From Escherichia coli (GTDB taxonomy: Bacteria; Pseudomonadota; Gammaproteobacteria; Enterobacterales; Enterobacteriaceae), in the NCBI RefSeq assembly GCF_003334335.1, contig NZ_QOWQ01000013.1: DNA of 64,000 bases; one strand, written 5' to 3'. Below the pieces are notes generated by a model. It saw nothing but the letters and a program-made list of their open reading frames with translations. It was not told the origin of the DNA and made no database searches. Below are positions 5,832 to 57,360 of the stretch, in pieces. Within the stretch, counting starts at the first letter, position 1. The number at the start of each line of letters is the position of its first letter. The position numbers were made by a program, and so were the translations under genes.

Positions 5832-7128
<1,297 letters not shown>

Positions 7129-12912: not shown

Positions 12913-13944
12913 ATGTCTGCATTTACCCCGGCAAGTGAAGTCTTGCTGCGTCACAGTGATGATTTCGAACAAAGCCGTATTCTGTTTGCCGGAGACTTAC
13001 AGGATGACCTGCCCGCGCGTTTAGATACCGCGGCCAGCCGTGCTCATACCCAGCAATTTCACCACTGGCAGGTGTTAAGCCGCCAGATGGGGGATAACGC
13101 CCGTTTTAGTCTGGTCGCCACGGCGGATGACGTCGCAGATTGCGATACGCTGATTTACTACTGGCCGAAGAACAAACCGGAAGCCCAGTTCCAGTTGATG
13201 AATTTACTTTCTCTGCTGCCGGTGGGCACTGATATTTTTGTCGTTGGCGAGAACCGCAGCGGCGTGCGCAGCGCCGAGCAGATGCTGGCTGATTATGCGC
13301 CGTTGAATAAAGTCGACAGCGCCCGTCGCTGTGGCCTCTATTTTGGTCGTCTGGAAAAACAGCCGGTATTTGATGCCGATAAATTCTGGGGCGAATACAG
13401 CGTCGATGGCCTGACGGTCAAAACGCTGCCTGGCGTGTTTAGCCGCGACGGTCTGGATGTCGGTAGCCAGTTGCTACTCTCGACGTTAACCCCGCACACG
13501 AAAGGTAAAGTGCTGGATGTCGGCTGTGGCGCGGGTGTGCTTTCAGTTGCCTTTGCGCGCCATTCACCGAAAATTCGTCTCACCTTGTGCGATGTCTCTG
13601 CCCCGGCGGTAGAAGCCAGCCGTGCGACGCTTGCGGCCAACGGTGTTGAAGGTGAAGTCTTTGCCAGCAACGTCTTTTCCGAGGTGAAAGGTCGTTTTGA
13701 TATGATCATCTCCAACCCGCCGTTCCACGATGGGATGCAAACCAGCCTGGATGCGGCGCAAACGCTGATTCGCGGCGCGGTGCGTCATCTTAATAGCGGC
13801 GGCGAGCTGCGAATTGTAGCGAACGCCTTCCTGCCTTATCCGGACGTGCTGGATGAGACATTTGGCTTCCACGAAGTGATCGCGCAAACAGGGCGCTTCA
13901 AGGTGTATCGCGCCATTATGACCCGCCAGGCGAAGAAAGGTTAA
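12913..13944 (+). CDS. rsmC: 16S rRNA (guanine1207-N2)-methyltransferase
   Basis: 343 aa; SAM-binding [11 protein letters not shown] and NPPFH catalytic motif. Confidence 0.9.
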
Positions 13945-14140
<196 letters not shown>

Positions 14141-14175
14141 TTTCCAGCAATTACACCTCCGGCGATAATTAACTA

Positions 14176-14203
14176 TTGACGAAAAGCTGAAAACCACTAG
14201 AAT
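14176..14203 (+). promoter_or_regulatory. Sigma-70 promoter for tRNA-Leu (TTGACG -35, 16-bp spacer, TAGAAT -10, GC-rich discriminator)
   Basis: ttgacg at 14176-14181 and tagaat at 14198-14203, followed by gcgcctcc discriminator typical of stringently controlled stable-RNA promoters, about 40 bp upstream of the tRNA. Confidence 0.65.
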
Positions 14204-14244
14204 GCGCCTCCGTGGTAGCAATTCTTTTTAAGAATTGATGGTAT

Positions 14245-14331
14245 GCGAAGGTGGCGGAATTGGTAGACGCGCTAGCTTCAGGTGTTAGTGTCCTTACGGA
14301 CGTGGGGGTTCAAGTCCCCCCCCTCGCACCA
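14245..14331 (+). tRNA. leuQ: tRNA-Leu (anticodon CAG)
   Basis: GCGAAGGTGGCGGAATTGGTAGACGCGCTAGCTTCAGGTGTTAGTGTCCTTACGGACGTGGGGGTTCAAGTCCCCCCCCTCGCACCA; type II tRNA with long variable arm, CAG anticodon in CTTCAGGT loop, encoded CCA end. Single copy here; which of leuQ/P/V it corresponds to is not determinable. Confidence 0.9.
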
Positions 14332-14369
14332 ATTATCTTTACTTCCTTTCTTGTTTCTTCCCTGTTTTG

Positions 14370-14606
14370 TCATCCCTGATTCAAATTCATTAGCATCAGC
14401 ATGATGCCAGCACTAAGCGTCAGGCACGATGGTAGCAAAACGTAATGCCGTAACTGTTTGTGATACAGCATCACCGGCGTCAATACTAATCCCATAAGAA
14501 TGACAATCCGCCATTGATCCGGCGATAAATCCGCATACATCAGCCCTGCAATCAGCAATCCTGGCAGCAACACTCCCCAGCCACTGCCCAGCGTACGTTG
14601 CAACAT
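14370..14606 (-). CDS. yjjZ: Small membrane protein YjjZ
   Basis: 78-aa product MLQRTLGSGWGVLLPGLLIAGLMYADL... from the internal Met of track ORF 14370..14717. Confidence 0.7.
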   Translation of the reverse strand: MLQRTLGSGWGVLLPGLLIAGLMYADLSPDQWRIVILMGLVLTPVMLYHKQLRHYVLLPSCLTLSAGIMLMLMNLNQG

Positions 14607-14746: not shown

Positions 14747-15535
14747 ATGGCCTATCGTTCCGCACCGCTCTATGAAGATGTTATCTGGCGAACGCATCTC
14801 CAGCCACAGGATGCTGGGCTTGCACAAGCCGTACGTGCGACGATCGCCAAACATCGTGAACATTTGCTCGAGTTTATCCGCCTGGATGAACCCGCTCCGC
14901 TTAACGCCATGACGCTGGCGCAATGGTCATCACCGAATGCGCTAAGTTCTCTACTCGCGGTCTATTCCGATCATATCTATCGCAACCAACCAACGATGAT
15001 CCGCGAGAACAAACCGCTGATCTCACTATGGGCACAATGGTATATCGGCCTGATGGTGCCACCATTAATGCTGGCGCTACTGACGCAGGAAAAGGCATTA
15101 GATGTGTCGCCGGAACATTTCCACGTTGAGTTTCACGAAACCGGCCGTGCCGCCTGTTTCTGGGTCGATGTGTGTGAAGATAAAAACGCAACACCACATT
15201 CGCCGCAGCAGCGAATGGAAACGTTAATCAGCCAGGCGCTGGTTCCGGTTGTGCAGGCACTAGAAGCGACCGGAGAGATCAACGGCAAACTTATCTGGAG
15301 TAATACCGGTTATTTGATCAACTGGTATCTCACTGAGATGAAGCAACTGCTCGGCGAGGCGACGGTTGAATCGCTGCGCCATGCCCTCTTTTTTGAGAAA
15401 ACGCTCACGAACGGTGAAGATAATCCACTCTGGCGTACCGTGGTACTGCGCGACGGCCTGCTGGTGCGCCGCACTTGCTGCCAGCGTTATCGCTTACCGG
15501 ATGTGCAGCAATGTGGCGATTGTACGCTGAAATGA
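14747..15535 (+). CDS. fhuF: Ferric-siderophore reductase FhuF (C-terminal 2Fe-2S cluster)
   Basis: 262 aa ending CCQRYRLPDVQQCGDCTLK (C-C-x10-C-x2-C). Confidence 0.9.
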   Translation: MAYRSAPLYEDVIWRTHLQPQDAGLAQAVRATIAKHREHLLEFIRLDEPAPLNAMTLAQWSSPNALSSLLAVYSDHIYRNQPTMIRENKPLISLWAQWYIGLMVPPLMLALLTQEKALDVSPEHFHVEFHETGRAACFWVDVCEDKNATPHSPQQRMETLISQALVPVVQALEATGEINGKLIWSNTGYLINWYLTEMKQLLGEATVESLRHALFFEKTLTNGEDNPLWRTVVLRDGLLVRRTCCQRYRLPDVQQCGDCTLK

Positions 15536-28822: not shown

Positions 28823-28903
28823 TGCTGTGGAAAAGCGTCGGCACTGCTTTTGTTGCAGCAAACTTGCGTTTTTTGTGAGGGTCACACTCTATAGCGGCAG
28901 TTT

Positions 28904-29809
28904 ATGGTACAAAGTATCAATCTTCTTCGAACCAGTGATACTCCTATGGCTTATAGCATCGATATCATCTCCTGCATTACCGAACGGTTTATGGCGTTAA
29001 CAGCCACTGAAAAGCGTATCGCACAATTTATTCTTGATGACGTCTCTGCCGCAGTAGAGTTGCCAATTGCTGAGCTGGCACGGTTAACGCAAACCAGTCA
29101 GGCGTCGGTGACGCGTTTTGCCCGTGCACTGGGGTGCAAAGATGTCCGCGAGTTGAAAGTCAAACTGGCGCAGTCACTGGCTGTCGGGCAGCGGTTTATT
29201 CTCGATGTACCGGATCTTGACGGTGTTCAGGGGATCTACGAAGCGATTATTAGCGTGCTGGAGACGCATCGTCGTTCGCTGGATATGAATGCCATCAGCC
29301 AGGCTGTAAGCTGGTTAAGTCAGGCGCGGCAAATTCTTGCGTTAGGAACTGGCGGCGGTTCCACTATCTGTTCACAGGAGATTCAGTACCGTTTATTCCG
29401 TCTGGGGCTACCGGTGGTCAGTCAGAATGATGCCCTGATGATGAGAATGATGTGCTCGGCAGTCATGCCGCAGGATGTGGTGATTGTGCTTTCGCTGGGC
29501 GGTTATACACCGGAAATCATCGAAAGTGCGGCAATCGCCCGTCAGTATGGCGCGCGTGTTATTGCCATTACGCCAGCACAAACACCGCTGGCGGAACAGG
29601 TGGATCTGGTATTGCCGTTACTGGTTCAGGAAAGTGATTACATCTTTAAGCCCACCCCTTCCCGCTACGCGATGTTAGCCATGGTCGATGTACTGGCAAC
29701 AGAACTGGCAATGGCAAATAAAGCGCAGGCGAAAGATCGCCTGCGGCGGATAAAACTCGTGTTAGACAGCCACCGTGGGGGCGCTAACCGCCAGCCACTT
29801 GGCGATTAG
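28904..29809 (+). CDS. RpiR/MurR-family transcriptional regulator (HTH_6 + SIS domain)
   Basis: 301-aa ORF; N-terminal HTH (TEKRIAQFILDD...LARLTQTSQASVTRFARALG) and C-terminal SIS sugar-phosphate-binding-like domain; alternative start at Met15 (28946). Not part of the K-12 tsr-btsT interval as I recall it. Confidence 0.75.
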   Translation: MVQSINLLRTSDTPMAYSIDIISCITERFMALTATEKRIAQFILDDVSAAVELPIAELARLTQTSQASVTRFARALGCKDVRELKVKLAQSLAVGQRFILDVPDLDGVQGIYEAIISVLETHRRSLDMNAISQAVSWLSQARQILALGTGGGSTICSQEIQYRLFRLGLPVVSQNDALMMRMMCSAVMPQDVVIVLSLGGYTPEIIESAAIARQYGARVIAITPAQTPLAEQVDLVLPLLVQESDYIFKPTPSRYAMLAMVDVLATELAMANKAQAKDRLRRIKLVLDSHRGGANRQPLGD

Positions 29810-29818
29810 CATTGTCGG

Positions 29819-31288
29819 TTATGCTTCTTCAGGTTTGGTGATCACGACACTCTGGTTTTCACGCTCATTGGTGATAATAGCCAAAGCTTCTTCCCGGCTG
29901 ACCTGACTTGCTGGCGTTACCAACGTCACCAGTACGCCAGCGACCAGGCTGCCCAGCACTGACGGAATACACGGGTTACCCCAGTAAGCCAGCCAGTCGG
30001 CATTCATCAGCACCACAATTGACATCACCATACCGCTCACTAACGCCGCCAGCGCGCCCTGCCAGTTAAAGCGTAGCCAGAAGCGACCGAGAATCGAGCA
30101 GATAAACAGCCCGGACATCAGCATCGAAATCATTTTGGTAATGTAGCTGATGATGTCATTAGAGGTCAGAGCAAAGACCAGCGCCAGGCCAATAACAAAG
30201 GTCAACATCCAGCGTGAGTAAGTAATGGCCTTGTCCTCCGGCGGCATTCTGCCGGTAATCATGGTGTAGACGTCGCGCATCATAATCGCCACCGCCGCGA
30301 TGGCATCGGAGCTGGCAGAAGACATGGTGGCTGAAAGCCCGGCAATCAGCACCACCAGCCCAAGAATGGCAGGTAAGAAACTGGTCGCGAACAAGAAGGC
30401 GTAGTTGCTGTTTTCCAGATTTGGGTTCATGGTGAACGCCGCCATGCCGATAATGGCAGGCAAAATCGAGAAGAACAGATATAACACCCCAGTAATAACA
30501 AACGAACGGCGTACAGAGGGAACATCTTTACCCGAGTAAATACGCTGGCGATAAGACGGTGTGGCCAGTACGCCGACACCAATAACCAGCGCCAGCGAAA
30601 GCGCAGGTAGAACGCCCATTTTATCAATCGCAAACAGGCTCATCGCTTTTGGGTCCATCGCCTGTTCAATCGCACTCCAGCCGCCAACGTGAACAACGGC
30701 GAGAATAGCCATCAATATAAAGCCAAAGAACAGAATTAAGGCCTGAATGGTGTCTGTCCACACTACCGCCGAATAACCGCCGATAATAACGTAAATCGCA
30801 AAAGCTAAGGCGATAATTAATTTTGCTACAGTAAGATCAATACCTGTTGCCCAGGCAAGATACATACTGCCACCTAATATATGCGCCCCCAGCCAGCCAA
30901 TAGAGGCAATAAATATCATCAGGCCGACAATATTTTTAATTAAATGACTCCCGCCAGTATAATAAGATATTTCTTCACTCATGGTCATAAAACGTAATTT
31001 ACGTACCGGTGCAAACAGCCACGCCACCAGTAATATACCTACGGCCCCACCGACGCCATAAAGCATTCCGGCCCAGCCATTGCTGTAGCCAAAGCCCACG
31101 GCGCCCATACTGGAACCCGTGCCAACCATCGTGGCAACGGTTGAGCCCAGCGTCAGAAACAGCGGCAACGAACGCCCGCCCAGCAGAAAATCTTCTCCGC
31201 TTTTCTGATTACGAGACACAAACCAACCAAGCCAAATCATGGCGATGGCATAAATAATAAAGCCGACTAAAAAGATATGACTGTTCAT
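29819..31288 (-). CDS. Sodium:solute symporter (SSF family) transporter
   Basis: 489 aa, about 13 TM segments; N-terminal region typical of PutP/PanF-type SSF carriers. Confidence 0.75.
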   Translation of the reverse strand: MNSHIFLVGFIIYAIAMIWLGWFVSRNQKSGEDFLLGGRSLPLFLTLGSTVATMVGTGSSMGAVGFGYSNGWAGMLYGVGGAVGILLVAWLFAPVRKLRFMTMSEEISYYTGGSHLIKNIVGLMIFIASIGWLGAHILGGSMYLAWATGIDLTVAKLIIALAFAIYVIIGGYSAVVWTDTIQALILFFGFILMAILAVVHVGGWSAIEQAMDPKAMSLFAIDKMGVLPALSLALVIGVGVLATPSYRQRIYSGKDVPSVRRSFVITGVLYLFFSILPAIIGMAAFTMNPNLENSNYAFLFATSFLPAILGLVVLIAGLSATMSSASSDAIAAVAIMMRDVYTMITGRMPPEDKAITYSRWMLTFVIGLALVFALTSNDIISYITKMISMLMSGLFICSILGRFWLRFNWQGALAALVSGMVMSIVVLMNADWLAYWGNPCIPSVLGSLVAGVLVTLVTPASQVSREEALAIITNERENQSVVITKPEEA

Positions 31289-31390
31289 AATTCACATCCT
31301 GCCAGTAGAGAGAGAATAAAGTAAGAGTTCCCGGAGTGCTGAATGTATTCAGCACTCAATTGCGGTCTATTTTTTTAATTCTTAAATTTA

Positions 31391-31786
31391 TTAGCGGGTC
31401 GCGTTATAACAGGTCACATCGACTTCAACTTTACAATCGACAACCAGATCAGCTACACAACAAATACGTGCAGGCGGATTCTCGCCAAAAAATTCTCTGA
31501 ATACTTTATTAAATGACTGGAAATAGCGGGCGTCGGTCAGGATCACTTTCACGTGAACCACATCCGCCAGGCTATAACCGGCTTCAGTCATGATGTCGAC
31601 ACAGTTTTGGATCGCCAGTCGTGACTGTTCAACGATACCGCCTTCTACCACTTCACCGTTTTTCATGGGGGTTTGCCCGGAGACGTACAGCCAGCCGCCC
31701 GCCTCAACCGCCCTGGCAAACGGCAAATGCTGCCCGCCAGTGCCTGTTCCACCTTCCGTACCGTAACGTTTAATACTCATATTCAC
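31391..31786 (-). CDS. RidA/YjgF-family reactive enamine/imine deaminase
   Basis: 131 aa with the conserved RidA C-terminal signature (PARICCVADL...VEVDV). Confidence 0.75.
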   Translation of the reverse strand: MNMSIKRYGTEGGTGTGGQHLPFARAVEAGGWLYVSGQTPMKNGEVVEGGIVEQSRLAIQNCVDIMTEAGYSLADVVHVKVILTDARYFQSFNKVFREFFGENPPARICCVADLVVDCKVEVDVTCYNATR

Positions 31787-31789
31787 TCC

Positions 31790-33241
31790 TTAATGTGAGG
31801 TCTGGCGGCGCAGGAAGCGTCCCGCACGGCCTGTAATGTGTTTATCGCGACCATAGCTCATAACGCCGTTCACCATCACCGCCTCAATGCCATCTGCCGG
31901 GCGTTTGGGATCAGAAAAGCTGGCAACATCACGAATGGTTTGTGGATCGAACAACACCAGGTCCGCAAAATAGCCGACTTTCACCAGCCCACGCTGAGGC
32001 AGACGAAAACGGCTGGCAGAAAGCCCGGTCATTTTGTGGATAGCCGTGGTCAGTGGGAATAAGCCTTCATCACGGCAATAGTGACCCAGCACGCGAGGGA
32101 AAGCGCCCCATAAACGCGGATGCGGCATGGGATCATTGGGCAGTCCGTCAGAGCCAATCATACTGACCGGATAACTCAACACTCTGCGGACGTCGCGCTC
32201 GTCCATGTTGTAATAGATAGCCCCGGCAGGCATCAGCAACTTCGCGGCCTCCAGCATACTCATCTGCCAGTCGATGGCGATTTGTGCCAGTGTTTTCCCG
32301 GCCTGCTGCGGATGTGTTTGTGACCAGGTGATCACAATATCGAATTCGTCGGTGACTTGTTTGAGATCCAGCGTTGAAGAACTGGCCGAGTAAGGGTAGA
32401 CATCGCAGCCAATTTCCTGGTGTTGACGCATTTGGTCAAAAAAGGCCAACGTTTCTTTTGTCCGCCCCCAGTTTTTCGCCCCGGCGCATTTATGGTGGGA
32501 AACCACGACAGGCACTTTGCCATGACGCCCAATACGAAACGCCTCATCCAGGGCATCGAGAATCGGTTCAAATTCAGAACGCAGATGGGTGGTATAAACG
32601 CCCTTCTCACCGGCTAATTCTTCCGCCAGCGCCATGACTTCTTCGGTAGTCGCCTGAAATGCCGTTGCATAGGCCAGCCCGGAACTTAACCCCAGCGCCC
32701 CCTGACTCAACGCCAGACGTAAGTCGGCACGCATAGCGGCAATTTCATCCACCGTCGCCGGGCGAAACAGGTCGTCCATATGGTTATTACGCAGCGCCGT
32801 ATGACCAATCAGCGTGCCAACGTTCAGTGACGGCCTGGCTGCTTCCACTGCCTGGGCATAGCTTTCAACGGTAGGATAAATAAAGTGCTCTGCTTCCCCC
32901 AACAGATTCATCGGGTCAGGAACTTCACCTTTCATTTTCGCCGACGCCGCACTGATCCCGCAGTTACCGACAATCACCGTAGTGATCCCCTGGCTGATCT
33001 TTGGCAGATATTCCGGGATGCGAATAACGTTGATATCGTCATGGGTATGAACGTCGATAAACCCTGGTGCCAGCACCCGCCCTTCCCCGTCAATGACCTG
33101 CTGCGCCGTAACGTTAAGCGCAGGGGCAATATCGACAATCCGATCACCTGTTATTGCCACGTCACCGCGAAATTCAGGGCCGCCGCTACCGTCGATAACG
33201 GTCACATTTTTGATTAACCAGTCAACCTGCATGTTCGTCAC
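31790..33241 (-). CDS. N-acyl-D-amino-acid deacylase-like amidohydrolase (D-aminoacylase family)
   Basis: 483 aa; N-terminus IKNVTVIDGSGGP...APGFIDVHTHDD is the metal-binding HxH start of D-aminoacylase-type amidohydrolases; 4-nt gap to the RidA gene. Confidence 0.75.
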   Translation of the reverse strand: MTNMQVDWLIKNVTVIDGSGGPEFRGDVAITGDRIVDIAPALNVTAQQVIDGEGRVLAPGFIDVHTHDDINVIRIPEYLPKISQGITTVIVGNCGISAASAKMKGEVPDPMNLLGEAEHFIYPTVESYAQAVEAARPSLNVGTLIGHTALRNNHMDDLFRPATVDEIAAMRADLRLALSQGALGLSSGLAYATAFQATTEEVMALAEELAGEKGVYTTHLRSEFEPILDALDEAFRIGRHGKVPVVVSHHKCAGAKNWGRTKETLAFFDQMRQHQEIGCDVYPYSASSSTLDLKQVTDEFDIVITWSQTHPQQAGKTLAQIAIDWQMSMLEAAKLLMPAGAIYYNMDERDVRRVLSYPVSMIGSDGLPNDPMPHPRLWGAFPRVLGHYCRDEGLFPLTTAIHKMTGLSASRFRLPQRGLVKVGYFADLVLFDPQTIRDVASFSDPKRPADGIEAVMVNGVMSYGRDKHITGRAGRFLRRQTSH

Positions 33242-33432
33242 TCCATTTCTGCAATGGTGACAAGTTAACCATTTACAAGGACGAAAAACAGTGGAAAACT
33301 ACGCAAAACCCAGATGATTTTATGATACTTTTATTCATAAATAATAAGATAAATAAACTAAATATTTATATTTCATTTAGTTACAAATGATACTCACATC
33401 CGATACGGTGAAAAACTTAAAAGGTAAATGTT

Positions 33433-34653
33433 ATGAAATACCACTCAGAACCTCTGGTTCCCCATAAATCTGCCCTGATGCAAATGCCCGCAAATCTCCT
33501 TGCCGAAGATGTCTGTTTACCTGCCGCGATCATTAAAAAGCAGGCCCTGGAGAACAACATTACGTGGATGCAACGCTACGCTGACGCGCGCGGCGTTTCA
33601 CTGGCACCGCACGGTAAAACCACCATGACGCCGTGGATTTTTCAGGCGCAGCAGGCGGCTGGTGCCTGGGCAATAGGTGTCGGTAGCGCATGGCAGGCTG
33701 GTGCGGCAATGGCGAGCGGTATTCAGCGAGTGCTGATGGTTAACCAGCTGGTCGGCAAGGCGAATATGCAGTTGATTGCCCAGTTGCAACAACATTACCC
33801 GACGGTCGATTTTATCTGCTGTATCGACAGCATTGAGAACGCCCGCGCTTTGTCTGCCTTTTTTGCCAGTCAGCAACAGACACTGAACGTGATGATTGAA
33901 CTGGGTGTTCCCGGCGGGCGCTGTGGTTGCCGCTCAACGGATGCCGCACTGGCACTGGCTAAACAGGCAGCCCAATTACCGGGGTTACGCCTGCGGGGGC
34001 TTGAGTTATATGAAGGCGTTTTACACGGTGACGATCCACAACCGCAGGTAGAAGCTCTGCTGCGGGATGCCGCACAACTGGCCTGTGATATGGCAAATCT
34101 GGTTGATGGCGAGTTTATTCTCACCGGAGCAGGCACGGTCTGGTATGACGTGGTGTGCAATATCTGGCTGGCGGCAGAAAAGCCTGATAACTGCCGCATT
34201 GTTATTCGCCCTGGCTGCTACATCACTCACGACACCGGGATCTACGACGCGGCACAACAACAGTTGCTTGCCCGTGATCCTGTGGCCTGCGATCTGGCAG
34301 GCGATCTCACATCTGCGCTGGAACTGGTCGCCATGGTGCAATCGGTGCCGGAAGCTGATCGTGCGGTGGTAAATTTTGGTAAGCGTGATTGCGCCTTCGA
34401 CGCCGGACTGCCGCAACCAGTCGCCCACTACCGCAACGGCAAATCACTGGCATTTGATCCACAGGCGATTCGCAGTACAGGTATTATGGATCAGCACTGC
34501 ATGTTGCAACTGTCAGCTAATAGCGACGTGCAAGTGGGGGATATTCTGGTGTTTGGCACATCGCATCCGTGCCTGACCTTCGACAAATGGAAAACGTTGT
34601 TATTGACTGATGACGACTACAACGTACTGGCAGAATTAGACACTCTCTTCTAA
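33433..34653 (+). CDS. Alanine-racemase-fold (type III PLP) D-serine-dehydratase-like enzyme (DSD1 family)
   Basis: 406 aa; probable PLP lysine in APHGKTT near the N-terminus; fold-type III architecture with C-terminal beta domain. Confidence 0.7.
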   Translation: MKYHSEPLVPHKSALMQMPANLLAEDVCLPAAIIKKQALENNITWMQRYADARGVSLAPHGKTTMTPWIFQAQQAAGAWAIGVGSAWQAGAAMASGIQRVLMVNQLVGKANMQLIAQLQQHYPTVDFICCIDSIENARALSAFFASQQQTLNVMIELGVPGGRCGCRSTDAALALAKQAAQLPGLRLRGLELYEGVLHGDDPQPQVEALLRDAAQLACDMANLVDGEFILTGAGTVWYDVVCNIWLAAEKPDNCRIVIRPGCYITHDTGIYDAAQQQLLARDPVACDLAGDLTSALELVAMVQSVPEADRAVVNFGKRDCAFDAGLPQPVAHYRNGKSLAFDPQAIRSTGIMDQHCMLQLSANSDVQVGDILVFGTSHPCLTFDKWKTLLLTDDDYNVLAELDTLF

Positions 34654-34657
34654 GAAC

Positions 34658-34693
34658 GCCCCTTCGGTTAATTATCGAAGGGGCATTTTTATT
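34658..34693 (+). terminator. Rho-independent terminator after the DSD1-like gene
   Basis: gccccttcg-gttaattat-cgaaggggc hairpin followed by atttttatt. Confidence 0.7.
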
Positions 34694-34756
34694 GTGATCT
34701 CAATCACATATCCACCCGACGAATAATTCTTGCCCAACCGCTCACCGCCATTCCTG

Positions 34757-42951: not shown

Positions 42952-43027
42952 CACGGTATCATTCCCGGCAATTTCTTCTTCTGCGGCCCCGAACATGCGG
43001 GCCGCTGCTTAATTTACGGAACTCACA

Positions 43028-44617
43028 ATGAACAATAACGATCTGGTCGCGAAGCTGTGGAAGCTGTGCGACAACCTGCGCGATGGCGGCGTTTCCTATC
43101 AAAACTATGTCAATGAACTCGCCTCGCTGCTGTTTTTGAAAATGTGTAAAGAGACCGGGCAGGAAGCGGAATACCTGCCGGAAGGCTACCGCTGGGATGA
43201 CCTGAAATCCCGCATCGGCCAGGAGCAGTTGCAGTTCTACCGTAACCTGCTGGTACATCTGGGCGCCGACAATCAAAAGCTGGTGCAGGCGGTGTTCCAG
43301 AACGTCAACACCACCATTACCCAGCCAAAACAGTTGACCGAACTGGTCAGCAATATGGATTCACTGGACTGGTACAACGGTGCGCACGGTAAGTCGCGCG
43401 ATGACTTCGGCGATATGTACGAAGGGTTGTTGCAGAAGAACGCGAACGAAACCAAGTCTGGCGCGGGCCAGTACTTCACCCCGCGTCCGCTGATTAAAAC
43501 CATTATTCATCTGCTGAAACCGCAGCCGCGTGAAGTAGTGCAGGACCCGGCAGCAGGTACAGCGGGCTTTTTGATTGAAGCCGACCGCTACGTTAAGTCG
43601 CAAACCAATGATCTGGACGACCTTGATGGCGACACGCAGGATTTCCAGATCCACCGCGCGTTTATCGGCCTCGAACTGGTGCCTGGCACCCGTCGTCTGG
43701 CGCTGATGAACTGCCTGCTGCACGATATTGAAGGCAACCTCGACCACGGCGGCGCAATCCGTCTGGGCAACACCCTGGGTAGCGATGGTGAAAACCTGCC
43801 AAAGGCGCATATTGTCGCCACTAACCCGCCGTTTGGCAGCGCCGCAGGCACCAACATTACCCGCACCTTTGTCCACCCGACCAGCAACAAACAGTTGTGC
43901 TTTATGCAGCATATTATCGAAACGCTGCATCCCGGCGGTCGTGCGGCGGTGGTGGTGCCGGATAACGTGCTGTTTGAAGGCGGCAAAGGCACCGACATCC
44001 GTCGTGACCTGATGGATAAGTGTCATCTGCACACCATTCTGCGTCTGCCGACCGGTATTTTTTACGCGCAGGGCGTGAAAACCAACGTGCTGTTCTTTAC
44101 CAAAGGGACGGTGGCAAATCCGCATCAGGATAAGAACTGTACTGATGACGTGTGGGTGTATGACCTGCGGACCAATATGCCGAGCTTCGGCAAGCGCACG
44201 CCGTTTACCGACGAGCATTTGCAGCCGTTTGAGCGCGTATATGGCGAAAACCCGCACGGCTTAAGCCCGCGCACGGAAGGGGAATGGAGTTTTAACGCCG
44301 AAGAGACGGAAGTTGCCGACAGCGAAGAGAACAAAAATACCGATCAGCATCTGGCTACCAGCCGCTGGCGCAAGTTCAGCCGCGAGTGGATCCGCACCGC
44401 GAAATCCGATTCGCTGGATATCTCCTGGTTAAAAGATAAAGACAGTATTGATGCTGACAGCCTGCCGGAGCCGGATGTATTAACGGCAGAAGCGATGGGC
44501 GAGCTGGTACAGGCATTGGGTGAACTGGATGCGCTGATGCGTGAACTGGGGGCGAGCGATGAGGCGGATGCGCAGCGTCAATTGCTGGAAGAAGCGTTTG
44601 GTGGGGTGAAGGAATGA
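43028..44617 (+). CDS. hsdM: Type I restriction-modification N6-adenine methyltransferase M subunit (EcoKI-like)
   Basis: 529 aa MNNNDLVAKLWKLCDNLRDGGVSYQNYVNELASLLFLKMC; NPPF catalytic motif (VATNPPFG). Confidence 0.95.
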   Translation: MNNNDLVAKLWKLCDNLRDGGVSYQNYVNELASLLFLKMCKETGQEAEYLPEGYRWDDLKSRIGQEQLQFYRNLLVHLGADNQKLVQAVFQNVNTTITQPKQLTELVSNMDSLDWYNGAHGKSRDDFGDMYEGLLQKNANETKSGAGQYFTPRPLIKTIIHLLKPQPREVVQDPAAGTAGFLIEADRYVKSQTNDLDDLDGDTQDFQIHRAFIGLELVPGTRRLALMNCLLHDIEGNLDHGGAIRLGNTLGSDGENLPKAHIVATNPPFGSAAGTNITRTFVHPTSNKQLCFMQHIIETLHPGGRAAVVVPDNVLFEGGKGTDIRRDLMDKCHLHTILRLPTGIFYAQGVKTNVLFFTKGTVANPHQDKNCTDDVWVYDLRTNMPSFGKRTPFTDEHLQPFERVYGENPHGLSPRTEGEWSFNAEETEVADSEENKNTDQHLATSRWRKFSREWIRTAKSDSLDISWLKDKDSIDADSLPEPDVLTAEAMGELVQALGELDALMRELGASDEADAQRQLLEEAFGGVKE

Positions 44618-45963
44618 GTGCGGGGAAATTGCCGGAGGGGTGGGTTGAAACCTACCTTTCTGAAATATGTAGTAAACCACAATATGGTTATACAACTAAG
44701 TCGAGCTTTACAGGTAATGTAAAATTTTTAAGAACTACAGATATTACTAAAGGTACTGTGGATTGGTCCACTGTACCTTATTGTTTGCAAAATCCTGATG
44801 ATATACTTAAATATCAGCTTCAAGATCGAGATATTGTTATATCCCGGGCTGGTTCCGTAGGTTTTAGTTTTTTAGTAAAAAACCCACCGAATAATGCTGT
44901 CTTTGCTTCGTACCTGATCAGATTCAAACCTTTTGATAATATTTCAGAGCTTTACTTGAAGCGTTTTTTAGAGTCCGGCAACTATTGGGTTCAGCTTGCC
45001 TCTATGTCGGCTGGAAATGCATTACAAAATGTAAATGCTCAAAAATTATCCACGCTTATAGTACCAATTCCTCCACTTGCCGAACAAAAAATCATCGCTG
45101 AAAAACTCGATACGCTGCTGGCGCAGGTAGAGAGCACCAAAGCACGTCTTGAGCAAATCCCACAAATCCTGAAACGTTTTCGTCAGGCGGTGCTATCTAG
45201 TGCTGTTAGCGGTAAGTTAATTGACAAAAGCTTCGAAAATAAATTAGAAAAGCTCAATTCGTTTGTATCTATAGATATTGGTAATGCGTTCAAAAGCTCA
45301 GAGTTTAGTGATGAAGGCGTTCCATTACTCCGAGGACAAAATATAGAACCCGGAGCATTACGTTGGGATGACACAAAAAAATTCCCAATAGATAAACTTC
45401 AAAAATATTCTCATTTATTTATTAATGAGGGCGATATTATATTAGCAATGGATCGCCCAATAATATCAAGCGGGTTAAAAATAGCTAAAGCCAAAAAAAG
45501 TGATCTTCCTTGCGTTCTGGTTCAACGAGTTGCCAGATTTAAAGATTTCGAAAATCTAATTCCTGACTATCTGTATTTGTTATTGAATGATGTGTCTTTT
45601 ATTAATTATATTCAACCAAATCAGACTGGTAGCGACATTCCGCATATCAGTGGAAAACAAATTTTAAACTTTGAGTGTAATGTCCCCTCTATCCCCGAAC
45701 AACGCGAAATCGTTCGCCGCGTCGAGCAACTCTTCGCCTACGCCGACACTATAGAAAAACAGGTTAACAACGCCTTAGCCCGCGTCAACAACCTGACGCA
45801 ATCCATCCTGGCAAAAGCGTTCCGTGGTGAGCTCACCGCCCAGTGGCGGGCCGAAAACCCGGAATTAATCAGCGGAGAAAACAGCGCCGCCGCGTTGCTG
45901 GAGAAAATCAAAGCTGAATGCGCAGCCAGCGGGGGTAAAAAAGCCTCGAGTAAAAAATCCTGA
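44614..45963 (+). CDS. hsdS: Type I R-M specificity subunit with EcoKI-type conserved framework but divergent target recognition domains
   Basis: 449 aa; conserved N-terminus (MSAGKLPEGWV), central (PIPPLAEQKIIAEKLDTLLAQV) and C-terminal (EIVRRVEQLFAYADTIEKQVNNALARV...) regions as in EcoKI HsdS from memory; the two intervening TRDs are AT-rich and different. ATGA start/stop overlap with hsdM. Confidence 0.9.
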   Translation: MSAGKLPEGWVETYLSEICSKPQYGYTTKSSFTGNVKFLRTTDITKGTVDWSTVPYCLQNPDDILKYQLQDRDIVISRAGSVGFSFLVKNPPNNAVFASYLIRFKPFDNISELYLKRFLESGNYWVQLASMSAGNALQNVNAQKLSTLIVPIPPLAEQKIIAEKLDTLLAQVESTKARLEQIPQILKRFRQAVLSSAVSGKLIDKSFENKLEKLNSFVSIDIGNAFKSSEFSDEGVPLLRGQNIEPGALRWDDTKKFPIDKLQKYSHLFINEGDIILAMDRPIISSGLKIAKAKKSDLPCVLVQRVARFKDFENLIPDYLYLLLNDVSFINYIQPNQTGSDIPHISGKQILNFECNVPSIPEQREIVRRVEQLFAYADTIEKQVNNALARVNNLTQSILAKAFRGELTAQWRAENPELISGENSAAALLEKIKAECAASGGKKASSKKS

Positions 45964-45975
45964 TCATTATTTTCT

Positions 45976-46003
45976 GGCGCACCTTTCCGGTGCGCTTTTT
46001 ATT
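45976..46003 (+). terminator. Rho-independent terminator after hsdS
   Basis: ggcgcacc-tttcc-ggtgcgc hairpin followed by tttttatt. Confidence 0.7.
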
Positions 46004-46097
46004 ATTTTACACCAATCATAACCCACACAAATATATTTAAATCATTCCAGAAATTGCCTATTTTATTCTATTTTTAGCTGGACTTTCCCTGTATTTA

Positions 46098-46113
46098 CTG
46101 ATGATATATCCAG
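46098..46113. promoter_or_regulatory. LexA (SOS) box upstream of symE
   Basis: CTGATGATATATCCAG fits CTG-N10-CAG with AT-rich centre (consensus CTGTATATATATACAG), about 80 bp upstream of the symE ATG. Confidence 0.65.
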
Positions 46114-46139
46114 GTATTTAGCGCGGTGCGGATGTGCGC

Positions 46140-46220
46140 CAACACACCCGCACCGCTAATCACAATCACTATTTATAGGGAATAGCAGTTATGACTGACA
46201 CGCATTCTATTGCACAACCG
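46140..46220 (-). ncRNA. symR: Probable SymR antisense sRNA (type I antitoxin) overlapping the symE 5' end
   Basis: Placement from the known K-12 arrangement, where SymR is encoded antisense across the symE ribosome-binding site and start codon; boundaries not determinable from sequence alone. Confidence 0.35.
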
Positions 46221-46532
46221 TTCGAAGCAGAAGTCTCCCCGGCAAATAACCGTCAATTAACCGTGAGTTATGCGAGTCGCTACCCGGATTACAGCCGTAT
46301 TCCCGCCATCACCCTGAAAGGTCAGTGGCTGGAAACCGCCGGTTTTGCTACCGGCACGGCGGTAGATGTCAAAGTGATGGAAGGCTGTATTGTCCTCACC
46401 GCCCAACCACCTGCCGCCGAAGAGAGCGAACTGATGCAGTCACTGCGCCAGGTGTGCAAACTGTCGGCGCGTAAACAAAAGCAGGTGCAGGAATTTATTG
46501 AGGTGATTGCCGGTAAACGAAAAGTCGCCTGA
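46191..46532 (+). CDS. symE: SOS-induced toxin SymE (AbrB/MazE-fold endoribonuclease-like)
   Basis: 113 aa [48 protein letters not shown]. Confidence 0.9.
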
Positions 46533-46540
46533 TACATTGA

Positions 46541-46570
46541 CCCGGTAGCGCCAGTGCTACCGGGTATTAT
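46541..46570. terminator. Bidirectional terminator between convergent symE and the GmrSD-like gene
   Basis: cccggtagc-gccagt-gctaccggg hairpin followed by tattatt. Confidence 0.6.
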
Positions 46571-46578
46571 TCGCCACG

Positions 46579-48672
46579 TTATACCAACGCGCTCTCCATC
46601 TGTTTTTCAAATGCCTGACGGATTAATCCCATAATGTAAGGAAGTTGTGCGAGGTCGCTGAAACCAATTTCTACATCGCCATTGCCCCAGCGCCCAACAT
46701 TTGTCACATCTTTGGCAATACCTTTCGGATCGACCAGTTCATGAAACTGCATATTAAGCGACAATCGCAGTCGGCTTTTTTGCGGCACAACATCAACAAA
46801 GTTCGTTTCCGCTTTAAACGCAATATAGAGCTTCAATACTTCCTGCGTGATCCCTGCGTCCAGGCGCATAACTTCATCGCGAAGATGATCGAATAACTCC
46901 CGACTATGCGAACCATCAGCAAGAAAAGGAAAATCATTCAGGCTGTAATTGGTTTTGTTTTCAGGCTTCCCCCGATAAACAGCTAAAACCTCTTCAGGAA
47001 GAGCAGGCGCTTGCCAGACCTGAATTGCAAGCTCTGCCAGACGATCGGCTCGGGCGTGAATGGCGGCTTCATCCCATTTTTCGCACTGTCCAAGACCGAT
47101 ATTCAAATAGAGCGGGCTATGTTTAAAGCCGTCTTCAATATCGCGTTTTTCCGCGAAAGGTCTGTCACTGTAGCGGGAGTTATAGCGCGTTAATGTGAGA
47201 TTCCCCAACGTATGCAACAGTTCTTTATGAATGCGTTGCCAGTCACTTCCCAGCTCTTCACGCCATTTAGCCGACAAATTTTCGTTCTGCGGCATAATAT
47301 GTTCAATCGTAAACTCTTCCACGCGCTCTCTGCGTTTATCGTTTTCCAGTCGTCGTAACCAGTAACTGCGACTGCGGAAGTTATAGAGATCGCGAACTTT
47401 TAATTCCCGTTTAAATTCATCATCGTTGGGGAAACGACGATATGAAGGTAGATTCAGAAAATGTACCTGAATACTTTCCAGATAATTTTCTTTATTAATG
47501 ACCTTATAAAAAGTAGCAAACGTCTTGTTAAGAGAATTTGTCGGAATCGCACATACTGCACGGCGGAAAACATAAGATTCAATTAAACGAATTATGTTCA
47601 GGAAATCTTCTTGAGACAAAACGCCATTTTTATAGTCATGATAAAGCGCCAGTAAGAAAGGATACGCCACATCGACCTTTAACTCGCGCAAATCCTGAAA
47701 AGCCGTAGCAAGCGATTTGTCACTTTCTTTTCCCAATGCCATTGCACAGTAATACTCCGCGTAGATGTGAATATCTTCAACCAGCCGATCTACGCCTTTT
47801 TCAGCAACACTCTGGCTGCGGGCATGGAGTTTAAATGCCTCATAGACTTCATCTGTCCGAGGGATCTCCCCTGTTTTTACCGTCAGATAATGACGCATAA
47901 AACTGTCAAAATATTCGCTGTAACCTTGCTGACCAAACGCGACTTCCATTGGACGCCAGTGATCTTCATACAACCGGGTTTGATGCTCTGGTTCGAGGCC
48001 CATCAGAATAAAATTGCGCACCAGATCGGCCTGACTTAACGCCTTACCGGTGGAGTTCATACTTTCAAAAATCAGTTGCGGATTATCCTGACCACGATTA
48101 AGCGCCACATCGACAATTAATAATTTTGCTAACCCACGACATAAGGGAATCAAATCATCCCCGAGTTTGGCAATTTGTTCATCAAAGAAAGTAAAGTTTT
48201 CCATTATTCGATGGGAATAGTTTTCTGGCATTGGTCTTTGTTTTATTAACGCCAGCAAACTGTCTTTATCAGTCTCGGTCAGCAGTAATTTAAATCCTTT
48301 CTCGCCGGACTCATAAGGATTGAGTAAATAATAATTACGCAATTTCATTGCTGAAAAGCCATCAAAAACTTCGTCTTCGCCAAGATGACGCGATAAAGCC
48401 TCAATCAGCAACATTGCGGTCGTCAGCCTTTGTTGACCATCAATGACCAGTAACGGAGAAATACCAGAAACCTGATACAACCCCTGCTCAATATAAACAA
48501 CCGAACCGATAAAATGCGCTGATATATCGTCACGCTTTCCGGCACGAATGATGTCGTCCCAAAGTTGCCGACATTGTTGTTCTGTCCATGAATAAGTCCG
48601 TTGATAAATGGGAATAACAAACTGCTGCGAACGTTTTAAAAAATCGAGTAGGCGGGCTTCTGTAGCTTTCAT
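46579..48672 (-). CDS. DUF262-DUF1524 (GmrSD-like) putative modification-dependent type IV restriction nuclease with unassigned C-terminal extension
   Basis: 697 aa; N-terminal IPIYQRTYSW and LLVIDGQQRLTTAML (DUF262 DGQQR motif); EHIMPQN...LGNLTL (DUF1524 His-Me finger-like); about 140 further residues of unknown affinity; sits where I recall K-12 having mcrBC. Confidence 0.75.
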   Translation of the reverse strand: MKATEARLLDFLKRSQQFVIPIYQRTYSWTEQQCRQLWDDIIRAGKRDDISAHFIGSVVYIEQGLYQVSGISPLLVIDGQQRLTTAMLLIEALSRHLGEDEVFDGFSAMKLRNYYLLNPYESGEKGFKLLLTETDKDSLLALIKQRPMPENYSHRIMENFTFFDEQIAKLGDDLIPLCRGLAKLLIVDVALNRGQDNPQLIFESMNSTGKALSQADLVRNFILMGLEPEHQTRLYEDHWRPMEVAFGQQGYSEYFDSFMRHYLTVKTGEIPRTDEVYEAFKLHARSQSVAEKGVDRLVEDIHIYAEYYCAMALGKESDKSLATAFQDLRELKVDVAYPFLLALYHDYKNGVLSQEDFLNIIRLIESYVFRRAVCAIPTNSLNKTFATFYKVINKENYLESIQVHFLNLPSYRRFPNDDEFKRELKVRDLYNFRSRSYWLRRLENDKRRERVEEFTIEHIMPQNENLSAKWREELGSDWQRIHKELLHTLGNLTLTRYNSRYSDRPFAEKRDIEDGFKHSPLYLNIGLGQCEKWDEAAIHARADRLAELAIQVWQAPALPEEVLAVYRGKPENKTNYSLNDFPFLADGSHSRELFDHLRDEVMRLDAGITQEVLKLYIAFKAETNFVDVVPQKSRLRLSLNMQFHELVDPKGIAKDVTNVGRWGNGDVEIGFSDLAQLPYIMGLIRQAFEKQMESALV

Positions 48673-48768
48673 TCTGACGTCTTTCCGTGAAGCGATGATT
48701 TCGCAATAATAACCACTTCCTTGTGGAGGTTATAGAGAAATCCTGTTTATCCGCGACGAACTGCCCCC

Positions 48769-56785: not shown

Positions 56786-57048
56786 AAGAGTTTTTATTTT
56801 TATTTCACTCCACGGTCGGCGTCATACAAACCCGCAAGGCGTTGCAGGCAGCGGGCATGACTTTTCGCGTCAGCGATATTCCCCGTGATTTACGCGGCGG
56901 CTGCGGGTTATGCATTTGGCTGACCTGTCCCCCCGGCGAGGAAATACAATGGGTGATCCCTGGGCAAACCGAAGCGATATATTGCCAGCAGGGCAGCGAC
57001 TGGCAGTGCGTGGTGCATTACGATGCAGAAGCGTCAACCAGGCAATAA
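56782..57048 (+). CDS. Small Cys-containing protein, possible DUF3343-like accessory partner of YjiL/YjiM
   Basis: 88-aa ORF whose ATG overlaps the yjiL stop (ATGA); MKEFLFLFHSTVGVIQTRKALQAAGMTFRVSDIPRDLRGGCGLC...; family assignment is by recollection of fold-like pattern only. Confidence 0.45.
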
Positions 57049-57360
57049 GATCTTTAAATATACCAACCGGATAATTGGCTGCGCATAATCCTGCATGAAG
57101 GAAGTTGTATTAAATATCTCACCTGCCATGAAATATTTCCCATCCACAAAATGAGCGATTTTTGATAGCACCTTACCATTTTACGTCTAAAATACAAAAT
57201 ACATTTTATTATACTTAAACCCATAATTATGCATAGAGAAATAAAATGATTACCGGGTGAGATAATGATAAAAGATAAGTTTCTGTGCGAAGCTTATCTT
57301 TACCCATCCCCCTGATTATTTTAGATTTAGAAGAACATTTCACAATTCAAGGATAAAAAT

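Follow-up and report, generated by a model that had tools for sequence, protein, structure and literature searches.

The leuQPV site holds one tRNA gene

The window, by which we mean the whole 64-kb stretch of DNA analysed here, belongs to Escherichia coli. Its identity to K-12 is 98.2%, and from deoB to tsr (window positions 1-28824) the two are collinear. The only tRNA gene in the entire window is that of tRNA-Leu with the anticodon CAG, located by ARAGORN at 14245-14331 on the + strand. The Rfam tRNA family RF00005 matches the same positions with 48.5 bits, where the gathering score is 29, and Tandem Repeats Finder reports no tandem array at the locus. The gene order rsmC, tRNA, yjjZ, fhuF is that of K-12, and the tRNA is transcribed away from rsmC. 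rsmC itself is positioned as in K-12 and other E. coli, its product differs from K-12 RsmC by one residue, and fhuF is annotated likewise in related genomes. In the annotation of K-12 MG1655 the site carries leuQ, leuP and leuV (b4370-b4368). A sequence-only reading of the window had noticed a lone tRNA-Leu(CAG) gene between rsmC and yjjZ, and had set it against three tandem copies in K-12. The first point is borne out by ARAGORN, Rfam and the neighbouring open reading frames, the second by the MG1655 annotation. The features of the locus are as follows.

12913-13944, + strand: rsmC, 16S rRNA m2G1207 methyltransferase; 343-aa open reading frame, the upstream neighbour that fixes the locus
13950-14130, no strand: REP/BIME block between rsmC and the tRNA promoter; a length-polymorphic spacer outside the tRNA array
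14176-14203, + strand: promoter of the leu tRNA operon (K-12 leuQ/leuV promoter); -35 TTGACG, 16-nt spacer, -10 TAGAAT
14204-14244, + strand: G+C-rich discriminator GCGCCTCC and 5' leader with a small hairpin AATTCTTTTTAAGAATT; same as the K-12 leuQ leader, which RNase P cuts off
14245-14331, + strand: single tRNA-Leu(CAG) gene; 87 nt, CCA encoded (ARAGORN, Rfam, alignments)
14332-14369, + strand: leuV-type 3' trailer; pyrimidine-rich, hairpin terminator absent, begins ATTATC as the K-12 leuV trailer
14370-14606, - strand: yjjZ (DUF1435, 78 aa), convergent downstream neighbour (from translation)
14747-15535, + strand: fhuF, siderophore-iron reductase, second downstream neighbour (from translation)

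The promoter at 14176-14203 gives 10 of 12 matches in a scan with the sigma-70 consensus. The upstream region is of the leuQ type and equals that of K-12 base for base from about -48 to the tRNA, and the promoter sequence is common to K-12 and all eight other strains aligned. The intact strong promoter of the sequence-only reading is also confirmed. We take it to be the leuV promoter, reportedly FIS-activated and growth-rate-regulated. From the position of the -10 hexamer, transcription would start near 14211.

The 87-nt sequences of leuQ and leuV are the same in K-12; that of leuP departs from them solely at position 48, with T in place of C. The window gene is of the leuQ/leuV type with C at position 48. 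Its 8-C run, an indel hotspot in these tRNA genes (PMC8510543), is intact. RNase P processing of the leuQPV operon transcript has been reported, and Rho-dependent termination of the operon is presumed, not demonstrated (PMC2190699). A search for a + strand intrinsic terminator downstream of the tRNA found none, which fits the presumed Rho-dependent termination. The trailer of the window, CCCTGTTTTGTCAT, is presumed to be the start of the termination region.

The REP/BIME block consists of two 61-nt copies (13953-14013 and 14064-14124) with one base different between them, and Rfam naRNA4 matches on the - strand at 14023-14105 with 73 bits. The block is 33 bp longer in the window than in K-12, and in O157 it is 111 bp shorter. 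We note that changes in block length do not follow the number of tRNA copies.

Exactly 236 bp of the array are absent

Alignment of the window with K-12 is collinear and near-identical on both sides of the tRNA, and exactly 236 bp are absent from the window. The missing length is 87 + 28 + 87 + 34, that is, two tRNA units and both spacers of the array.

Absent from the window: spacer 1 of the array (28 bp), AAAACCACGTTGATATTGCTCGCACTGG
Absent from the window: spacer 2 of the array (34 bp), in the version of the window's lineage, AACGAGGCGATATCAAAAAAAGTTAGATGACTGT

Upstream of the one remaining tRNA the window keeps the promoter and leader of leuQ, and downstream of it the trailer of leuV, while the leuP variant with T48 is gone. 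Since leuQ and leuV are identical and the window gene is of their type, the junction is placed somewhere inside the tRNA and no narrower. What the window has is therefore a contracted leuQPV allele and not the canonical three-gene array: the location, the promoter and leader, the 87-nt tRNA and the trailer are present, and the three-gene array with its spacers is absent. The earlier reading had offered two alternatives for the single copy: either recombination among the tandem copies had reduced their number, or the assembly had collapsed the repeat. Both are supported in the sense that the anatomy of the 236-bp gap is compatible with either.

Other regions of the window

A 101-bp tandem array of REP-like units lies between yjjV and yjjW (5842-6358), with 5.1 copies and a 94% match; K-12 has about four copies. 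A 5.9-kb block between tsr and btsT (28825-34737) is absent from K-12 and encodes an RpiR/HexR-like regulator, a sodium/solute symporter, a Rid-family protein, an amidohydrolase and a BhcC-like aldolase, so that it looks like an accessory catabolic cluster. The variable restriction ('immigration control') region spans 42966-48763. Identity to EcoKI is only about 95% in hsdM and at the beginning of hsdS, and the larger part of hsdS (44614-45963) is without alignment. The mcrBC-yjiV-yjiT segment of K-12 is replaced in the window by about 2.2 kb with a 697-aa open reading frame (46579-48672, - strand) that has no NCBIfam match.

A gene for a 712-aa pentapeptide-repeat protein (57361-59499) is located within a segment unaligned to K-12 (56993-59757), between the yjiL-side genes and yjiK. 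Only 13 contigs of the public collection encode exactly this protein. Behind this gene, at 59635, the window has a run of four C, as against five in four closely related contigs from drafts or metagenomes. The run lies in the loop of a terminator-like hairpin, and the difference may be genuine or may be a sequencing error in a homopolymer. We considered this 1-bp difference as a hint of homopolymer error in the assembly and rejected it as a single site that is not evidence. No multi-copy IS element is found in the nine open reading frames annotated from regions differing from K-12; the rest of the window is collinear with K-12.

The nearest relative of the window has three copies

None of the complete RefSeq E. 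coli genomes is closer to the window than about 99.3%, which suggests that the window assembly is itself probably a draft. The nearest relative found is the draft GCA_049547825.1, whose 89-kb contig has one mismatch to the window in about 20 kb and otherwise differs only by the 236 bp. This contig has three tRNA-Leu(CAG) genes, and in the flanks of its tRNA array 561 of 561 positions equal those of the window. The 101-bp array between yjjV and yjjW is likewise identical in the two. The window is not a piece of this contig, as it would extend past the contig's start. With such a near-identical relative in the three-copy state, the single copy of the window is private to the strain or to the assembly.

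Other sequences of the lineage mostly stop at the tRNA. The exact YjjZ protein of the window is rare (6 contigs in an exact-sequence look-up) and serves as a lineage marker; one of these contigs, that of GCA_049547825.1, spans the tRNA array. The FhuF variant of the window is too common for such use. Two Logan contigs of the window haplotype end 30 nt inside the tRNA, and one of them, from SRR3951467, is identical to the window over the 10.3 kb adjoining the tRNA. From gene position alone, by coordinate arithmetic, the contig of GCA_040707435.1 would begin about 3 nt past the tRNA. Among the contigs with the exact pentapeptide protein none spans the tRNA: they end short of it or, by coordinates, start there. 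A scan for the exact 76-nt haplotype gave no match in the GTDB representative genomes and JGI metagenomes. On other backgrounds, nine contigs with the same FhuF protein, among the matches listed, have rsmC-yjjZ spacings of 661, 628 or 550 bp. Judged by gene coordinates only, each spacing would correspond to a three-copy array combined with one of three REP lengths.

One-copy alleles are common and recurrent

Copy number at the site was counted in 5,426 complete RefSeq E. coli genomes by two independent queries. The first contains both inter-tRNA spacers with short tRNA flanks; both spacers are present in 4,947 genomes, one only in 52 and neither in 427. The second is a 207-nt query of leader, tRNA and trailer, which is covered contiguously only if there is one copy; at a threshold of at least 80% coverage it is found in 425 of the 5,426. 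The counts agree (425 vs 427), and thus about 7.8% of the genomes have one copy, about 1% two and about 91% three. The one-copy allele is an ordinary and common copy-number variant, and hundreds of public genomes already have it in their annotation.

About 315 genomes carry the O157-type leader, which assigns roughly three quarters of the one-copy genomes to the O157:H7 lineage. The O55:H7 genome DEC5D is multi-copy. The remaining one-copy genomes, about 110, are scattered. In the three two-copy alleles examined (TR01, MJ-T and CFSAN004176) spacer 1 is kept and the second gene is of the leuQ/leuV type. The two tRNA-Leu genes of CFSAN004176 are annotated as 86 and 85 nt with a shortened 8-C run. 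These short runs are either real hotspot indels, in which case the genes would be defective, or homopolymer errors of the assembly.

In an alignment of nine strains, supplemented with strain U90, the one-copy state occurs on at least five backgrounds that differ in the upstream REP block and in trailer SNPs.

Window: long REP, trailer CCCTGTTTTGTCAT
JL05: REP K-12-like
PapRG-06-3: long REP, other SNPs
O157: REP 111 bp shorter
U90: 98.4% identity to the window over 9.3 kb

One-copy alleles on such different REP and SNP backgrounds imply independent events. The single copy of O157, by its REP and SNP differences, is also an independent event that was inherited clonally, whereas the nearest relative of the window has three copies. 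The complete genomes of the K-12 laboratory strains MC1061, ME8067 and OV2 show a lone tRNA-Leu gene at the leuQPV site. The identity of their flanks to K-12 is 100% in MC1061 and ME8067 and 99.7% in OV2, and their ancestor had three copies. Their single copies are private contractions, or collapses, in laboratory lineages. Descent of one-copy strains from a three-copy ancestor places contraction on the timescale of laboratory strain histories, that is, decades.

The backgrounds also bear on the question whether the window inherited its single copy, either from its ancestors or by recombination from a one-copy donor of the O157 or JL05 type. One-copy alleles are indeed clonal in some lineages (O157:H7, the 2020S05-013 and GF strain series), and U90 is 100% identical to the window over the 207 bp around the tRNA. 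However, the identity of U90 falls to 98.4% over the 9.3 kb, the first SNPs lying 83 bp before and 62 bp after the tRNA, and JL05, PapRG-06-3 and O157 deviate in REP structure or by trailer SNPs. The nine contigs with the same FhuF protein, taken by gene coordinates and among the matches listed, have three-copy-like spacing. The flanks of the window equal those of the three-copy relative over 20 kb and are unlike those of every one-copy genome examined. On these last two grounds an ancestral or imported allele was rejected, and we regard it as highly improbable.

Real deletion or assembly collapse

We suggest that the single copy of the window is probably a real and very recent deletion, present in the organism and not in the assembly alone; this weighting comes from rough base rates. 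Genuine one-copy alleles are common and recurrent among complete genomes, recent laboratory lineages included. In E. coli, RecA-independent template switching deletes DNA between direct repeats of about 100 bp often enough to be measured readily (PMC7145654), and the loss of tRNA gene copies is tolerated and can even be beneficial in poor media (PMC9981150). Against the deletion stand the three copies of GCA_049547825.1 and a one-copy state without independent support in the lineage.

The same points feed the other explanation, in which the three-gene array is real and the assembler crossed the leuQ/leuV repeat once, skipping spacer 1, leuP and spacer 2. The product of such a collapse is indistinguishable in sequence from that of a real deletion. 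Perfect 87-bp repeats exceed the k-mers common in short-read assembly, the window assembly is probably a draft, and other assemblies of the window haplotype break at the tRNA instead of resolving the array. The three-copy state of the near-identical relative, with its identical flanks, is also what a collapse predicts. However, the usual failure of assemblers at such repeats is a contig break, as in the related drafts, and not a false join, and the window, 64 kb of contiguous sequence, crosses the locus without interruption. The sister-strain draft GCA_049547825.1 resolved the array correctly. The window assembly reproduces the 5.1-copy 101-bp array exactly as in this relative, which argues that it is not generally prone to repeat collapse. 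Real one-copy alleles, moreover, are common in complete genomes, with recent laboratory lineages among them. We thus treat collapse as a serious possibility, which nevertheless falls short of being probable.

Proposed origin and function of the one-copy allele

For a real deletion we propose the following sequence of events.

Step 1: In the three-gene array leuQ and leuV are direct repeats whose starts are 236 bp apart. Unequal crossing-over between sister strands, or RecA-independent template switching or slippage, may take place between them.

Step 2: The exchange would result in a precise 236-bp deletion, with the loss of one unit of tRNA and 28-bp spacer and one unit of tRNA and 34-bp spacer. 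The leuQ promoter and leader would thus be joined to the leuV trailer via one recombinant 87-bp tRNA-Leu(CAG) gene. The deletion would be very recent, as it would follow the split from the near-identical relative that still has three copies.

Step 3: The remaining operon would be monocistronic, with the strong promoter unchanged. Maturation of the 5' end by RNase P, termination and trimming would proceed as in K-12, and gene dosage from the leuQPV site would be one third of normal.

With its promoter unchanged, the window locus is predicted to function as a monocistronic tRNA-Leu(CAG) operon. tRNA-Leu(CAG) reads CUG, the commonest codon of E. coli. If leuT is located elsewhere in the genome as in K-12, the strain has two tRNA-Leu(CAG) genes and not four. 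With two genes in place of four, tRNA-Leu(CAG) could make up less of the tRNA pool and growth could be slower in rich media; in poor media the change could have no effect or be of help (PMC9981150).

It is conceivable, although we consider it unlikely, that leuQPV acts as a fast and recurrent dosage switch. Arrays would then contract from three copies to one within clones, as in the window, the K-12 stocks and the O157:H7 branch, and one copy would perhaps be favoured in slow-growth or nutrient-poor lifestyles and not be a product of neutral drift. If this were true, the window and its three-copy sister would make a natural near-isogenic pair for the fitness effect of a halved tRNA-Leu(CAG) dosage.

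As the one-copy allele is already present in about 8% of complete E. coli genomes, the whole O157:H7 lineage included, the window adds nothing new on mechanism. Its practical use is a caution for annotation and for comparative tRNA counts: a single copy can be real at the leuQPV site, and copy number there can differ within one clone between isolates or between assemblies.

Comparison with known systems

The closest reference is the leuQPV operon of K-12 itself. Both have the same site between rsmC on one side and yjjZ and fhuF on the other, with the same promoter, leader and trailer, and the tRNA of the window equals both leuQ and leuV. They differ in that K-12 has three genes and the window one, without both spacers and without the T48 of leuP.

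In O157:H7, where the one-copy allele is fixed, genomes such as FDAARGOS_293, TB21-1 and Z869 likewise have a lone tRNA-Leu(CAG) at this site, and their leader and trailer are joined as in the window. However, they have 111 bp less REP sequence and four SNPs in the leader or trailer. MC1061, ME8067 and OV2 resemble the window in the proposed kind of event, a private and very recent contraction with flanks near-identical to those of the three-copy parent. They are laboratory lineages with complete-genome assemblies, whereas the window assembly is probably a draft.

As to the type of rearrangement, the pSTL assays with 101-bp repeats, which address RecA-independent template switching or sister-strand exchange, are similar in that close direct repeats of about 100 bp undergo precise loss of one repeat together with the intervening DNA (PMC7145654). 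In those assays the repeats are plasmid-borne and the loss is selected, whereas the leuQPV repeats lie in the chromosome, as tRNA genes that are highly transcribed and face replication head-on (PMC8510543).

Last but not least, the glyVXY array, with three or four copies across E. coli, is also built of identical tandem tRNA genes whose number varies by strain (PMC4539685). It concerns another tRNA at another locus, and tRNA-Leu(CAG) is not discussed in that work.
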